Of a DNA stretch of 64,000 nt, positions 767-57,308 are shown piece by piece. Every line of letters starts with the position of its first letter. Position 1 is the first letter of the stretch. The DNA lies in IMG/VR virus record IMGVR_UViG_3300037067_004891, positions 288,001 through 352,000 of that record; one strand, written 5' to 3'. The DNA comes from a virus (Duplodnaviria > Caudoviricetes). A program made the translations under genes and the position numbers. The notes beneath the pieces were generated by a model, which did no database searches, was not told the origin of the DNA, and saw only the letters and a program-made list of their open reading frames with translations.

Positions 767-1237
767 TCATTTATAATTTTCATCTTGAATAATACCATAT
801 TTATGAAAATATCTCAGTGGTCTCCATTTATGTCCATTAACATAAAACCCCCATTTATGATAAGGACGACTACAAAGTAATATAGTCCATGCACCACCTT
901 TAGGAATGTCAAGATAATGCTTTTGTTCAGCTTTCATCCTACGAGGTTTCCACGCAACCGCTTTATATCTTACTGGGTTTCCGTTTTCATCGGGCATCAC
1001 ATTATAATAATAACCCTTTATAATAATTGATATTAAATCACAGGAATGGTCATGAAAAAATCTTCTGTCATCTGATCTGAGCCAATGATGAAGTCTGATA
1101 GTAAAACCAAAAAATATTAAAGACCAGCGATATAAATAAGGACACTCTGGACGACCCAAAGCCTCTTTTATTCTTATCTGGAAAATCTTTCCAAATAGAT
1201 GTTTTTCGTGGTCTTTATATACTATTAGTTTTTTCAT
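767..1237 (-). CDS. Cupin-fold hypothetical protein
   Basis: RLHHW...FHDH...GYY...H...WT.L...WGF pattern typical of small phage cupin-like proteins. Confidence 0.55.
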   Translation of the reverse strand: MKKLIVYKDHEKHLFGKIFQIRIKEALGRPECPYLYRWSLIFFGFTIRLHHWLRSDDRRFFHDHSCDLISIIIKGYYYNVMPDENGNPVRYKAVAWKPRRMKAEQKHYLDIPKGGAWTILLCSRPYHKWGFYVNGHKWRPLRYFHKYGIIQDENYK

Positions 1238-1239
1238 TT

Positions 1240-1833
1240 TTAATTAATCTTCTTCATTTTTAATTTTTTCATTAATATAATAGTTTCTTCTTTTAATTTG
1301 TTGAATTTTTCTAATTCTTCTTCTGTTAAATTAAAATTAGATAAATCTATTTTTTGAGAAAATAATATATTCTCAATATCTGCTTGGTCTTGTTTACTAA
1401 ATCTACCTAATTTAGAAAAAATTAAACCTTCTGGTGATGCAACACAAATGTTATTATTTTTAATGGCGGTTTTAAAAATCTGTTTTGCTAAATCATCTCT
1501 AAGATTTATGGATTGTGGTGTAATAACTTCAACTTCAACATGAGTCTTATTATGCTGAAATGCACCATTCCGAGTTTTTTTAAATCCCTTTAATGATAAT
1601 GGTATATCATTTTTTGTTAAAAATAACATATCAACATCTTGTGTCATTCGAGGTGTAACATAATATGATAATGCAATGCCACCAATTAATACACAGTTAT
1701 CCACATTAAGTGTTATCCAATCTTCTAAAGCTTTAATAACTTCAACATGAACTATTGATTCAAATAATGTTCTATTACCATCATTTGGTGTTTTCATTTT
1801 ATCAATCCTAAATTTATTATATTCAGTTATCAT
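1240..1833 (-). CDS. Pol-beta-fold nucleotidyltransferase (DUF6036/AbiEii-like)
   Basis: IGGIAL...PRMTQDVD motif, plus C-terminal K..R..QD..DI. Confidence 0.75.
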   Translation of the reverse strand: MITEYNKFRIDKMKTPNDGNRTLFESIVHVEVIKALEDWITLNVDNCVLIGGIALSYYVTPRMTQDVDMLFLTKNDIPLSLKGFKKTRNGAFQHNKTHVEVEVITPQSINLRDDLAKQIFKTAIKNNNICVASPEGLIFSKLGRFSKQDQADIENILFSQKIDLSNFNLTEEELEKFNKLKEETIILMKKLKMKKIN

Positions 1834-1843
1834 ATGGGTTTTT

Positions 1844-2389
1844 TCATTTAATAATTTTAATAATCATAAATGGTTGTGACTTATATTCCTCAACAAAAGA
1901 ATAATCAGTCAACATTTTCAGATAATAATTTTTATCTTCTAACCATTTTCTGAATCGAACCTGATGTTCCGAATTCTTAATTGTCCATGTTGGGTGTGTC
2001 AAAGAAACTATACTACCACCGACCTTCAAAAATTTATACATATGCATGATGTGTTCAACATCAATATTATCCTTAAAATTCGGACAAGCAATAATATAAT
2101 CATAACGTTTTTCAGTGACAAATTTAAAAAAATCCTCACCAACAACATTATAACCTTTTTGTTTTAATTGATTTCTTAATTCCTGATTTAATTCGATACA
2201 ATCGATGTTAAAGTCGTAAAATGTATTATATTGGATTATACCATCGATTAAATCACCAGAACCAGCAGAGGGTTCTAAAATAGATATACAGTCAAAACCA
2301 CCAGAAAAACGACATTCGTTGAGAATTTGCTTCACAACATTTATACTCGTTTTTCTGATGGTTTTTTCCATATCTTTATTATTAAACAT
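1844..2389 (-). CDS. SAM-dependent methyltransferase with an atypical catalytic motif
   Basis: ILEPSAGSG motif I, CIELN and GEDF are present; the expected NPPF reads CPNF. Confidence 0.75.
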   Translation of the reverse strand: MFNNKDMEKTIRKTSINVVKQILNECRFSGGFDCISILEPSAGSGDLIDGIIQYNTFYDFNIDCIELNQELRNQLKQKGYNVVGEDFFKFVTEKRYDYIIACPNFKDNIDVEHIMHMYKFLKVGGSIVSLTHPTWTIKNSEHQVRFRKWLEDKNYYLKMLTDYSFVEEYKSQPFMIIKIIK

Positions 2390-2449
2390 TTAGTCAATCA
2401 TTTGATTGTGCAGTAATCACCACGAGCAGGTAGTTTAACTTTGATTACT

Positions 2450-2637
2450 TCAGTTTGGGACGAGTCGAACATCCGACCTCACACAAGTAACATCTGAAAT
2501 AACCACCTTACATATTCTGGGATTTGTCCGTGTCAATTACTCACCAACTCCACCCTTAATAATATAATTAGGCTATTTCATCTGTCCAATCCGCTAAGAC
2601 TGATGTGTGCGCTCTGAACCAACTGAGCTACAAACCG
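2450..2637 (-). tRNA. tRNA-like RNA (Ile-like body) with a 120-nt insert in the anticodon loop; no encoded CCA
   Basis: Acceptor stem CGGTTTG/CAAACTG, D-arm GCTC-AGTTGGTTCA-GAGC, anticodon stem CACAC/GTGTG, variable loop AGGTC, T-arm GGATG-TTCGACT-CGTCC. The insert spans 2485-2604. Confidence 0.8.
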
Positions 2638-2753
2638 TTTTTACAAAATTTAAAAGAACTTTATTTTTTGTTATTGTTACGTAAAGTAATTTTTAAAGTT
2701 TCAAAAATAATCATTAAAATATTATAAAAAAATTATTTAACATATTTTAATAA

Positions 2754-21305: not shown

Positions 21306-21600
21306 TGTCAACTACCCCTTGGTTAAAGACCAAGGGGCTTGAACCGTGAGGGTTAAGAGTAATTAGTTGATTAGGTGGCTTTTAAAAATTAAAATTAATT
21401 AATTTTAAGTGCAGAAGTTTAAAGGAAAGTTAAAGAACATACCAAGAAATGCTTCACAAGTTTCTTGCTCTATAAGTTCACAGTTAAACAAAGAAGAAAT
21501 TCTTAGTGCTGTGAGTGGGTGCAAAGCCTTCGGCTTTGACACCAGACTGACTTTAAACAACACCGAAGTGAATGAACGTCAAACAAAGAACAGACAGGTC
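21290..21600 (+). ncRNA. IscB omega RNA (approximate bounds; 5' guide from the upstream flank)
   Basis: Structured, GC-richer region starting GTCAACTACCCC immediately upstream of the PLMP domain. Confidence 0.75.
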
Positions 21601-22851
21601 TTACCGACATATGTGTTCGTTTTAAGTTTAGAAGGTCAAATTTTAATGCCTACTAAAGCCTCAAGAGCAAGAAGATTCATTAAAAATGGTAAAGCTGTTA
21701 TTATTAAAAAATATCCTTTCACAGTCCAGTTGACTGTTGAGTGTGATTCTCACACTCAACCTATCTCACTGGGAATCGATACTGGTTATGGTTTTATAGG
21801 ATTTTCAGCTACAACAAAAACAAAAGAATTATTATGTGGGACACTTAAACTGGATGGAAAAACAAAAGAAAGATTAGATGAAAAAAGAATGTACAGACGA
21901 CTTCGAAGAAGTCGTCACCACTGGTATAGAGAACCAAGGTTTGATAACAGAAAAAGAAAAAATGCTTGGTTACCACCGAGTGTTGAAAGAAGATATCAGA
22001 CACATTTAAATTTAATTCAAAGAATTAAATGTTTATTACCTATAACAGATGTAGTTATAGAGACAGCTAAATTTGATATACAAAAAATTGATAGACCAGA
22101 GATAAAAGGAATTAATTATCAACAAGGTAACAGGTATGATTATCAAAACGTTAGAGCATATTTAATGGTAAGAGAAAAAGGTTGCTGTCAATTTTGTTCT
22201 AAAGATTTTAAAGGACAACCAGCTCATTTACATCATATTAAACCACGTTCTAAAAGAGGTTCTGATAAGACATCAAATTTAGCACTATTACATGAAAAAT
22301 GTCATAACATTTTACATGAGAAACATTTAGAGGATAGTTTAAAATCAAATTCTAAAAATTATAAACCGAATACTTTTATGTCAATCATAAACAAAAGATT
22401 TTATGTTGACGTACCAGAGGTGAAAGTGACCTTCGGTCACGTCACCTTTGTGAACAGAAACGCTTTAAATATTGAGAAAAGTCATTTCAACGATGCTTTT
22501 GTTATTTCGGGTGGTAGTAAACAAATGAGATCAAAACCTGTTAACATTATACAAAAACATAGAAATAATAGAGTTATACAACTGAATAGGAAGGGCTTGC
22601 GCCCTTCCATCAGAAAGGAAAGATACAAAATTCAACTTCTTGATTTATTTTGGGTTGGTAAGAAAAAATATATTTCTAAAGGTGTTATGAACAAAGGTTT
22701 GTACGTTACTTTTGAAACAAAGGAAAAGAAGAATTATATTAAAACAGAAAATGTAAATAAAATATACAATTTTGGTAGCTTTGTTTGGTGTTGAAAATCT
22801 GTGAAATTCATCCACGAAGCTAAAGACTTCGTGGTTTTCTTTCACAAAAAT
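21308..22851 (+). mobile_element. IscB-encoding IS200/IS605-family element (no tnpA)
   Basis: End hairpin TCAACTACCCCTTGG-TTAAAGA-CCAAGGGG. The other end (22801-22851) is near-identical to the TnpB element left end and is followed by ATAAA. Confidence 0.9.
21409..22794 (+). CDS. iscB: IscB RNA-guided endonuclease (true start probably the GTG at 21568 or 21613)
   Basis: PLMP-like ILMPT, RuvC GIDTG / IE / HFNDA, RRLRR bridge helix and HNH (HHIKPRS..GSD..SNL..H). Confidence 0.95.
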   Translation: MQKFKGKLKNIPRNASQVSCSISSQLNKEEILSAVSGCKAFGFDTRLTLNNTEVNERQTKNRQVLPTYVFVLSLEGQILMPTKASRARRFIKNGKAVIIKKYPFTVQLTVECDSHTQPISLGIDTGYGFIGFSATTKTKELLCGTLKLDGKTKERLDEKRMYRRLRRSRHHWYREPRFDNRKRKNAWLPPSVERRYQTHLNLIQRIKCLLPITDVVIETAKFDIQKIDRPEIKGINYQQGNRYDYQNVRAYLMVREKGCCQFCSKDFKGQPAHLHHIKPRSKRGSDKTSNLALLHEKCHNILHEKHLEDSLKSNSKNYKPNTFMSIINKRFYVDVPEVKVTFGHVTFVNRNALNIEKSHFNDAFVISGGSKQMRSKPVNIIQKHRNNRVIQLNRKGLRPSIRKERYKIQLLDLFWVGKKKYISKGVMNKGLYVTFETKEKKNYIKTENVNKIYNFGSFVWC

Positions 22852-56065: not shown

Positions 56066-56806
56066 ATGATTAAAAAATTTGAAGATTTTCTTTTTGAGAA
56101 AATGGATATTAGAAACGATATCGATTTACAAAAAGAATTTGATGATATAAATAAAAGGTGTTTTAATAATGAAGTAGAAAAAATTCCTTTAGTTTGGATA
56201 AAAAGTAAAAAGGTTTGTGGAAGAACTCATGCTACATATTACCCAGCTTCTAAAACATATAAAGTAGAAAAAATAGAAATATCTTATTTTTATGAATTAG
56301 ATTACGAAAAATTTAAGGATATCATGGCACATGAAATGATTCATGCCTATATGTATCAGAAAAATATAAAAGAATATGGTGGTTCTCACGGAATTCGTTT
56401 TAAAGAATGGATGGATAAGTTAAATAAAATGGGGTTCAATATTAATATTAAGGATGATGCAGAATTTTTTAAAGTTTCAAATGATAATGAATTAAGTAGT
56501 CCAGTTGTAGTTATCTTAATAAAGGATGAAAAGAATAATAATATAAATTTTTCGATAGCACTATTCCAAGAAAATTTTATTACCGATGAAACCAAAGACT
56601 GGATAATAAAAATGTTTAAAAGAAATAATATTTATAATCACATGAAATATTATTTAACTTTTATTAAATCCAAAGATTCTCGTTTGAAAAAATTTCAAGT
56701 TAAAAGAAGTGCATCATCATTCGGGACATATACTATATCTGAACAATTTTATAACGAATTAATGGAACAAGGTGATATTTTGTATAACACTACTCTCATA
56801 GAGTAG
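56066..56806 (+). CDS. SprT-like zinc metalloprotease with a CTS-like N-terminus
   Basis: HEMIH...HG..F; starts MIKKFEDFLFE. Confidence 0.8.
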   Translation: MIKKFEDFLFEKMDIRNDIDLQKEFDDINKRCFNNEVEKIPLVWIKSKKVCGRTHATYYPASKTYKVEKIEISYFYELDYEKFKDIMAHEMIHAYMYQKNIKEYGGSHGIRFKEWMDKLNKMGFNINIKDDAEFFKVSNDNELSSPVVVILIKDEKNNNINFSIALFQENFITDETKDWIIKMFKRNNIYNHMKYYLTFIKSKDSRLKKFQVKRSASSFGTYTISEQFYNELMEQGDILYNTTLIE

Positions 56807-57308
56807 ATTCGAAAATACTATCTAATTTAGCCTTTCTTACAAATGCTTTTAATTCACTATCAGTTTTGAATACTTTTTCCAATTCTTTTTCCGAAATTAT
56901 ATTTAAAATATTAAATTTAATCAAAGGAAAATCATCCAAATAAAGTCTGAATTCACCTGAAAAATTTACACCACCATTAAAAGTTCCAGTATGGAAACCA
57001 AGTTGTGTTGAAAAACAAGCGGTTTGACAGAAAGGTGAATCAATCAAATTTTTCGTTGGTAATACTAACCATTCGCCCTTAATCCAACCTCTGAACCCTA
57101 AATAATTTTTACTTGTATTATTAGAATAACGTCTAACAACATTTAATGGGTTATCGTGGGAGATGTTTATAAATTCAAAATGGAAATCTTTCCAATTTTT
57201 AAATTTAACAACACCACCATGTATAATTTTCATATTTCGAATATAATTTTTTTCCAATTCGTCTAAATTTTTTGAATTTAAACGAGCCTGATTTTTTAAT
57301 GTATTCAT
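56796..57308 (-). CDS. Hypothetical protein with a C-terminal RKAKLDSIF motif
   Basis: 170-aa ORF; TATCTTTG box upstream. Confidence 0.6.
   Translation of the reverse strand: MNTLKNQARLNSKNLDELEKNYIRNMKIIHGGVVKFKNWKDFHFEFINISHDNPLNVVRRYSNNTSKNYLGFRGWIKGEWLVLPTKNLIDSPFCQTACFSTQLGFHTGTFNGGVNFSGEFRLYLDDFPLIKFNILNIISEKELEKVFKTDSELKAFVRKAKLDSIFESTL

Follow-up and report, generated by a model that had tools for sequence, protein, structure and literature searches.

The 64,000-nucleotide (nt) stretch of viral DNA analyzed here (the window) comprises bases 288001–352000 of a 421,673-bp IMG/VR record (IMGVR_UViG_3300037067_004891) with a G+C content of 25.7% and no end repeats. Near the start of the window, the minus strand encodes a 188-nt RNA shaped like a valine transfer RNA (tRNA-Val; positions 2450–2637), the anticodon loop of which carries a 120-nt structured insert (positions 2485–2604). 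The RNA is followed, on the same strand, by a candidate self-cleaving ribozyme and by genes for an S-adenosylmethionine (SAM) methyltransferase, a nucleotidyltransferase-like protein and a cupin. CheckV estimates the record to be 59% complete. Elsewhere in the record, 12 ordinary tRNA genes are found, including a normal tRNA-Val(UAC) at 56600–56675. The nearest relatives found are virus records of 640 and 676 kb. The size, base composition and oversized tRNAs of the phage match those of the Lak-type megaphages of gut Prevotella (PMC6784885, PMC8346664), consistent with a Lak-like giant phage.

The tRNA-Val-shaped RNA and its anticodon-loop insert

Read on the minus strand (2637–2450), the RNA forms a full cloverleaf in which the 120-nt insert is located between tRNA positions 31 and 32. 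The acceptor stem consists of 7 bp (CGGTTTG/CAAACTG; 2637–2631 and 2457–2451), the D arm is built from GCTC-AGTTGGTTCA-GAGC with the D stem GCTC/GAGC, and the anticodon stem pairs CACAC with GTGTG (2609–2605 and 2484–2480). The cloverleaf is completed by the variable loop AGGTC, the T arm GGATG-TTCGACT-CGTCC with the T stem GGATG/CGTCC, and the discriminator base A2450. G18G19 and the T-loop sequence UUCRA are present, as in the cloverleaf of RF00005. The pairing of the acceptor, D, anticodon and T stems, proposed in an initial annotation of the locus, is borne out by the minus-strand reading and by stem covariation, and no CCA is encoded after A2450, as had also been stated. The minimum free energy (MFE) fold of the whole RNA surpasses those of all 200 shuffled sequences (z = −4.19).

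Default ARAGORN and Rfam (RF00005) scans, which had been suggested as a check, call no tRNA at the locus. With introns permitted (ARAGORN -i), the program reports a tRNA-Val(tac) in which positions 31 and 32 are separated by a 113-nt insert and the loop (g-t-tac-t-t) is abnormal. The D arm is identical at 20 of 20 nt to that of the phage's own tRNA-Val(UAC), and the ordinary tRNA-Val is the next-best genome match of a covariance model built from the RNA (R1). The body, first likened to tRNA-Ile, is therefore that of a tRNA-Val and, judging from these matches, derives from the phage's own tRNA-Val(UAC). R1 detects a single copy per genome in three megaphages. A reading of the RNA as a miniature inverted-repeat transposable element or other mobile element was rejected, as the genome contains no second copy.

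The insert was delineated from the MFE fold, RNAalifold and homologue comparison. It consists of a hairpin, H1 (2602–2587), and a long interrupted rod (2586–2489), which contains tandem G·A-type internal loops and a 9-nt terminal loop, AGUAAUUGA (2541–2533). The helices CAGTC/GATTG and TGAAATAGCC/GGTTATTTCA, noted earlier between CACAC and GTGTG, are both present (2604–2485) along with several more. Near the 3′ border of the insert, U-A-C (2487–2489, minus strand) appears to be a vestigial valine anticodon, given that A35 and C36 are invariant in 10 diverged RNAs and present in all 13 members of the family described below. These two nucleotides, A2488 and C2487, are single-stranded in the fold. 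Because the arm exits the loop on its 5′ side, they can, in the predicted structure, stack on the 3′ anticodon-stem strand, just as they would in an ordinary tRNA. The best 7-nt remnant of the anticodon loop is GUUACUU, which does not combine U33 with a purine at position 37.

Family conservation and valine identity nucleotides

The family comprises the window RNA and 12 related RNAs, each from a different metagenomic phage contig or genome. The close homologues L002, L124 (identical to L207) and L295 were found by pattern scans and neighbor-gene searches. Ten further methyltransferase loci (51–80% identity) were fetched and, with L002 and L124, make up 12 related loci. BLAST of the region against GenBank phages gave no match. 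Exact-pattern scans of IMG/VR with three long motifs returned nothing or the same relative again, and IMG/VR scans with the neighboring proteins returned only two already known relatives. IMG/VR scans with 14-mer and 17-mer patterns produced mostly chance matches, and screening retained only L207 among the matches listed.

In the four-sequence alignment, 98.2% of the cells are paired and 13 pairs are changed on both sides, compared with 4.8 ± 1.6 double changes in column shuffles and 1–2 with slid partners. Insert substitutions among the close homologues are compensatory, semi-compensatory or located in loops, apart from two mismatches, both in L295. In these sequences, the D arm and anticodon stem hardly vary, and the insert is 86–91% identical. 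Divergence is greatest in the acceptor and T arms, which nevertheless still pair. The insert is accordingly better conserved in the aligned sequences than the acceptor and T arms, the opposite of what is expected for a passive intron in a conserved tRNA.

The same insert architecture is found in 10 diverged RNAs. In their model-guided alignment, 92.9% of the cells are paired and 44 of 57 pairs are changed on both sides (27.5 ± 2.8 in shuffles and 17–27 in slid controls), although these counts lean towards the structure because the alignment was fitted to the model. Six new RNAs match R1 end to end with scores of 61–110 bits. L294, L296 and L297 keep the cloverleaf, contain a different insert of ∼150 nt and score 37–47 bits. 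By the covariation counts, the structure is far beyond chance, and purifying selection maintains the structure of the insert. The initial annotation had envisaged a decayed insertion without conservation in homologues; the homologues gathered here instead reveal a conserved and covarying insert, and on this comparative evidence the feature is real and functional.

The variant RNAs (L294:2777–2988, L296:2376–2582 and L297:2151–2358) have a multi-helix insert at the same syntenic site. This variant keeps an AAC-A-U remnant and exhibits seven compensatory pairs among the three sequences. L296 contains, directly upstream of the variant RNA, another large-insert RNA of tRNA shape that is unrelated to it (L296:2126–2338; acceptor stem CAAGGTG/CACCTTG, A73).

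Conservation in the family is concentrated at nucleotides that mark valine identity. C1-G72, U71 and A73 are kept in 13 of 13 RNAs, and G2·U71 is kept in 12. The dinucleotide AC, which corresponds to A35 and C36 and is located three bases before the 3′ anticodon-stem strand, is likewise kept in all 13. The insert region of the 10 diverged RNAs contains only nine invariant columns, among them A35 and C36. Further invariants are one adenine on each side of a YRGA/RAAY internal loop and two uridines of the terminal loop, which is mostly palindromic (UARYUR, in the forms UAAUUG, UAAUUA, UAGCUA and UAGCUG). The major identity elements of valine tRNAs, A35, C36 and A73, are also retained by the valine-accepting tRNA-like structures of plant viruses (TLS-Val), which tolerate inserted stem-loops (PMC9976931). 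All 13 phage RNAs present A35 and C36 next to an anticodon-type stem, together with A73, as valine-accepting tRNA-like structures do.

The features used in decoding follow a different pattern. U33 is kept in only 7 of the 13 RNAs, and in L002 it is replaced by G33, a compensatory partner of the insert. Six members have a purine at position 37 and seven a pyrimidine. At the wobble position, U, A and G all occur; eight of the RNAs have A34, which is unusual for bacterial decoders. In the family alignment, the identity nucleotides of valyl-tRNA synthetase (ValRS) are kept while the decoding features are lost.

Linked genes and flanking RNA elements

A tRNA-shaped RNA with a large insert is located upstream of the methyltransferase gene in 12 of 12 related loci, as in the window. 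It is the nearest upstream feature in 11 of them and is found two genes up in L298. A cupin homologue is present in all 12, usually right after the methyltransferase; this conserved pairing had not been recognized in the initial annotation of the RNA. In six loci, 12–15 nt without a terminator separate A73 from the methyltransferase ATG. The flanking genes vary by locus and include those for terminase, RNA ligase, holin/radical SAM and R2K. L317, which encodes a longer, 39%-identical methyltransferase, lacks such an RNA. In another locus, P0063, whose methyltransferase is 46% identical, a weak match to PTH2 (peptidyl-tRNA hydrolase) is found upstream of a 627-nt gene-free gap.

The SAM methyltransferase (175 residues; 1847–2371, minus strand) was assigned from Pfam/PHROG and PDB profile matches, AlphaFold and Foldseek. 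Its AlphaFold model has a predicted local distance difference test score (pLDDT) of 90.6 and in Foldseek fits best on the catalytic domains of the gamma-class N6-adenine DNA methyltransferases CamA, M.BseCI and M.TaqI (TMq 0.70–0.77). The PDB profile matches are to BseCI and Erm, and Erm/KsgA rRNA methyltransferases also appear. The protein is devoid of a target-recognition domain, and its motif IV is CPNF (CPTY in most homologues), not NPPY. Its homologues are numerous in metagenomes. The cupin (156 residues; 767–1237, minus strand) belongs to a 'cysteine dioxygenase-like' PHROG (phrog_4786, E = 3e-25) and contains three-histidine-type conserved motifs (HH, HDH and H). Its fold model (pLDDT 64) yields only weak matches to cupin enzymes, and a cupin profile gave no match to PDB sequences. 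Between the two genes, a DUF6036/AbiEii-like nucleotidyltransferase is encoded (1240–1833, minus strand; Pfam PF19502, E = 2e-11). This gene is a variable passenger because it is present only in the window and L002 and absent from the other 11 loci.

Directly downstream of the RNA, an HDV (hepatitis delta virus)-like, theta-type self-cleaving ribozyme candidate (2382–2449, minus strand) was identified by an RF02682 match, inspection, a descriptor scan and conservation in L295. The RF02682 match at 2449–2382 scores 32.2 bits (E = 3e-4 in a 500-nt scan and 6.4e-5 in the genome), and that of L295 scores 32.9 bits, both below the gathering score of 44. Helices P1 (7 bp; AGUAAUC/GAUUACU), P3 (3 bp with a 7-nt L3) and P4 (5 bp) were taken from the covariance-model alignment. 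P2 (6 bp; UUAAAC/GUUUAA), which the covariance model leaves unscored, and P1.1 (2 bp; GC/GC) were located by inspection and with a descriptor scan of our own. The nested double pseudoknot of P1, P1.1, P2, P3 and P4 is complete in the candidate. The putative catalytic C starts J4/2, where A-C-U-A-A aligns with the consensus G-C-U-A-A. Over both strands (843 kb), the descriptor scan returned this site and only two AT-rich chance sites. The AGTAATCA/TGATTACT hairpin that the initial annotation placed after the 3′ end is present, but it constitutes helix P1 of the candidate HDV-like ribozyme, which had gone unrecognized.

The first base of the candidate ribozyme, 2449, directly follows the discriminator A2450, so that the predicted cleavage site falls within ±1 nt of the tRNA 3′ end. 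The same ribozyme follows the same RNA at the same position in L295, with changes confined to unpaired positions. G1 is the cleavage site in theta ribozymes (PMC10879173). The first base here is A (A1-U38) and not G, and a register shifted by one would give G-C at the cleavage site. The ribozyme is found in only 2 of the 13 family members.

A CCA-adding-type nucleotidyltransferase is encoded in all three megaphages, 16–18 kb from the RNA. In the full record, the CCA-adding/poly(A) polymerase domain (PF01743, 115 bits) is located at 272781–273170 on the plus strand within an 850-residue open frame, ∼15 kb before the window, and both relatives have it at a comparable distance from the RNA. A class I synthetase fragment of the ValRS type (464 residues) is encoded in only one of the three megaphages and is therefore not a general partner. 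A terminator-like hairpin and T-run of its own directly follow the RNA in L310 (2170–2200) and L298 (1361–1390), the two loci in which the RNA and the methyltransferase gene are not directly adjacent. L297 (2360–2490) and L296 (2584–2720) contain a conserved ∼125-nt element between the RNA and the methyltransferase, with a long-range pairing (AATCGTTCT...AGAACGATT), internal hairpins and no Rfam match. This element could be another 3′-processing element or a non-coding RNA.

Upstream of the RNA, the boxA-like element of the initial annotation, AAGTTCTTT (2661–2653), is present and, given its recurrence in related RNAs, is a possible promoter element: GTTC(T/A)TT is found 7–15 nt upstream in 10 of 14 related RNAs. 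GTTCTTT was rejected as a genome-wide promoter motif because it is only weakly enriched in the intergenic DNA of the genome. A sigma-70-like promoter match, TTAAAA-18-TATAAT (2721–2750, minus strand), agrees with the consensus at 10 of 12 positions and is kept in L124 and L295; 10/12 matches of this type are common in this AT-rich DNA.

A proposed tRNA-Val mimic and competing explanations

With slightly better than even confidence, we interpret the RNA as a non-decoding tRNA-Val mimic that undergoes tRNA-like processing, with a ribozyme-cut 3′ end in this phage, that probably presents valine identity to ValRS and that belongs, with the methyltransferase and the cupin, to a conserved module. 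The stand-alone mimic would have evolved from the phage tRNA-Val(UAC) and would be transcribed with, or just ahead of, the methyltransferase–cupin operon. It would be trimmed at the 5′ end by RNase P and cut at the 3′ end, exactly after A73, by the HDV-like ribozyme. In the relatives, the 3′ end may be made instead by host nucleases or, in two contigs, by the terminator. A phage CCA-adding enzyme would complete the 3′ end. The 120-nt arm, by exiting the anticodon loop between nt 31 and 32, would leave A35 and C36 stacked where ValRS reads them, and the mimic would for this reason probably still be recognized, and perhaps charged, by ValRS. The mimic would be too bulky for decoding on the ribosome. 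The functional surface would be the conserved arm, with its internal loops and terminal loop, on which the two co-inherited enzymes or some other partner most likely dock.

A more specific form of this proposal, which we consider quite unlikely, is that the RNA is a ribosome-excluded valine carrier charged by host ValRS via A35, C36 and A73, and that the cupin and methyltransferase dock on its arm and either tailor the amino acid or use the RNA as a specificity subunit. The former, if true, would amount to a tRNA-dependent amino-acid modification pathway and the latter to an RNA-guided methyltransferase. No description of either in phages was found.

Several observations weigh against the tRNA-Val mimic. 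The conserved G2·U71 wobble sits in the acceptor helix, and G·U pairs at positions 3 or 4 impair Escherichia coli ValRS (PMC9976931), which makes charging by ValRS uncertain. G20, a minor valine element, is U in the window RNA. Splicing to a decoding tRNA-Val would also predict conservation of N-A-C. The predicted methyltransferase fold fits an ordinary DNA methyltransferase equally well, and part of the gene linkage among related phages is synteny by inheritance. The model-fitted alignment of the 10 diverged RNAs, with its lean towards the structure, belongs to the same side.

The best surviving alternative, possible though unlikely, is an intron-containing tRNA-Val from which 113–120 nt are excised by an endonuclease or an unrecognized ribozyme and whose halves the phage RtcB then ligates. 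The product would be a decoding tRNA-Val with maturation regulated in infection, and the insert would count among the 'enigmatic introns' of Lak tRNAs. Oversized tRNAs with unexplained inserts and no Rfam match have indeed been reported in Lak megaphages (PMC6784885). The seven nucleotides before the 3′ anticodon-stem strand can be read as a loop, N-N-N-A-C-N-N, with a valine anticodon in 13 of 13 RNAs, and this remnant loop is fully canonical in L309 (CUAACAA) and L311 (UUAACGA). An RtcB RNA ligase is encoded outside the window (98542–99708 of the full record, minus strand; PF01139, 169.8 bits), so protein-dependent splicing is possible, a further point against the mimic. The relative L299 contains a tRNA-Asn with a real group I intron, and introns therefore do occur in tRNAs of this phage group.

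The insert itself fits no known intron class. A 500-nt scan gave no group I (RF00028) match at E ≤ 10, whereas the L299 intron, used as a positive control, scores 70.1 bits, and 113–120 nt is well under the sizes known for natural group I introns. No Rfam ribozyme (hammerhead, twister, pistol, hatchet or hairpin) is found in the insert at E ≤ 10. The absence of a clear bulge-helix-bulge and of a simple splice giving a canonical loop, both remarked on in the initial annotation, holds on inspection: the 4-bp helix 52–55/146–149 is flanked by a hairpin and a 2 × 2 loop and not by 3-nt bulges on opposite strands. U at column 35 and G at column 147 are invariant among the close homologues; splicing there would produce an 8-nt loop, and no guide sequence is apparent by inspection. 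A search of the phage genes in the 59%-complete record found no splicing-endonuclease gene (PF01974). The joined loop would lack U33 in 6 of the 13 RNAs and purine-37 in 7 and would carry A34 in 8. An intron is also at odds with the covariation of the insert, its better conservation than the acceptor and T arms, and the normal tRNA-Val(UAC) already in the genome. Of the two possibilities first suggested, a small intron or a tRNA mimic, the mimic is favored by the retention of identity and the loss of decoding features, and the intron is less favored as no known class fits.

The L299 tRNA-Asn(GUU) extends over L299:1768–2038, and the flanks of its 224-nt intron (1787–2010) splice to the canonical loop CUGUUAA. 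Its tRNA cluster contains other oversized tRNAs, such as a tRNA-Leu with a 54-nt insert after position 38. In the full record of the window phage, an 87-nt tRNA at 57029–57115 is ambiguous, with default ARAGORN calling Tyr(gta) and the intron-permitting mode calling Leu(taa) with a 15-nt insert.

A role purely in cis is quite improbable. The tRNA shape would then be a processing and stabilizing signal, acted on by RNase P and RNase Z (or the ribozyme), that provides the methyltransferase–cupin mRNA with a short and defined 5′ end, comparable to mascRNA/MALAT1 or mitochondrial tRNA punctuation, and the released RNA would have no function in trans. The short, terminator-free spacing between A73 and the methyltransferase ATG in 6 of the 13 loci agrees with such a leader, as do the lack of a predicted terminator between the RNA and the gene in the window and the ∼10-nt leader that the ribozyme would leave. 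However, a processing signal requires neither a covarying, conserved 120-nt arm nor invariant A35 and C36. The L310 and L298 RNAs, with their own terminator-like hairpins, are 346 and 1140 nt away from the gene, and in L124 another open reading frame (ORF) intervenes between the RNA and the methyltransferase.

Less probable again is a decoy or sponge, directed at ValRS or at a host tRNA-targeting defense (an anticodon nuclease or a MenT/AbiEii-type nucleotidyltransferase), with the neighboring enzymes unrelated. Phage tRNAs are known to counter tRNA-depleting defenses, the tRNA-Val shape and its identity nucleotides are kept, and the DUF6036/AbiEii-like gene is in the cluster here and in L002. 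That gene is, however, missing from 11 of the 13 loci, the anticodon loop, which is the usual nuclease target, is the remodeled part, and the strict linkage to the methyltransferase and cupin is left unexplained. A decayed tRNA pseudogene broken by an insertion, a scarcely credible reading despite the failure of standard tRNA finders to call the RNA and the two A·C acceptor-stem mismatches and degenerate T loop of L002, is effectively refuted by the covariation counts, with compensatory evolution throughout 13 members spanning 51–100% methyltransferase identity, one conserved copy per genome and a dedicated candidate ribozyme.

Among known systems, the Lak 'enigmatic' tRNA introns (Devoto et al. 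2019, PMC6784885; restated by Crisci et al. 2021, PMC8346664) are similar in their very AT-rich megaphage setting (25.7% G+C here) and in being oversized tRNAs missed in bacterial mode, with inserts of ∼80–115 nt and no Rfam match. The published inserts (Tyr, Phe, Gly and Thr) are at 37/38 in otherwise canonical loops and contain T-arm-like sequences (PMC6784885), whereas the insert described here is at 31/32 in a non-canonical loop. Table S6 of Devoto et al. 2019 (PMC6784885) contains no matches to two motifs of the window insert. The present analysis adds covariation, the pattern of ValRS identity nucleotides, the candidate 3′ ribozyme and the linkage to the two enzymes, none of which appears in that paper. 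Theta ribozymes (Kienbeck et al. 2024, PMC10879173) share the HDV-like double pseudoknot within ±1 nt of a CCA-less tRNA(-like) 3′ end, a phage-encoded CCA-adding enzyme and a Bacteroidota-type phage context. The candidate differs in its sub-gathering score, its A1-U38 instead of G1, the 188-nt putative mimic upstream and its presence in 2 of 13 members.

Plant-virus TLS-Val (turnip yellow mosaic virus; PMC7749636, PMC9976931) is also a viral RNA that keeps A35 and C36 (and A73 here) without decoding, and large stem-loop insertions are tolerated for its valylation (PMC7749636, PMC9976931). TLS-Val is the 3′ end of an RNA genome and has a pseudoknotted acceptor arm. In contrast, the phage RNA comes from its own gene in a DNA phage, its acceptor stem is a regular 7-bp helix accompanied by complete D and T arms, and its charging is a possibility suggested by the identity nucleotides. 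In group I intron tRNAs (RF00028), a bacterial-type tRNA gene is likewise interrupted in its anticodon loop. The window insert differs in having no RF00028 signal, half the size of the 224-nt L299 intron, no P1/guide pairing by inspection and no canonical loop from any splice choice. The stable RNAs species 1 and 2 of phage T4 (rnaC and rnaD) are processed like tRNAs and have no known role; the family described here is distinguished from them by the valine identity signature and the fixed two-enzyme partner set. YrlA-type Y RNAs (RF02553) resemble the phage RNA in joining tRNA mimicry to a long stem, which binds protein in YrlA. YrlA RNA ends at its Ro-binding stem and not at an acceptor end as in the phage RNA. 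The genome contains no TROVE/Ro60 gene, and Rfam scans of the locus gave no RF02553 match.

The literature searched offers no explanation for the Lak megaphage tRNA inserts reported in 2019, nor did it yield the valine signature, the connection to a ribozyme or the enzyme triad. The present comparison turns one unexplained Lak-type tRNA insert into a defined RNA family with covariation, a valine signature without decoding, a probable ribozyme-made 3′ end and a fixed enzyme pair. If the RNA is a tRNA-Val mimic, DNA phages use aminoacyl-tRNA mimicry outside translation, which to our knowledge is otherwise known only from plant RNA viruses, and small self-cleaving ribozymes would be linked to the maturation of non-tRNA products.

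Elsewhere in the window, an IscB-associated omega RNA of the HEARO family (RF02033) is found at 21307–21577 on the plus strand with a score of 103.3 bits, above the gathering score, and overlaps the start of a 461-residue ORF (21409–22794).

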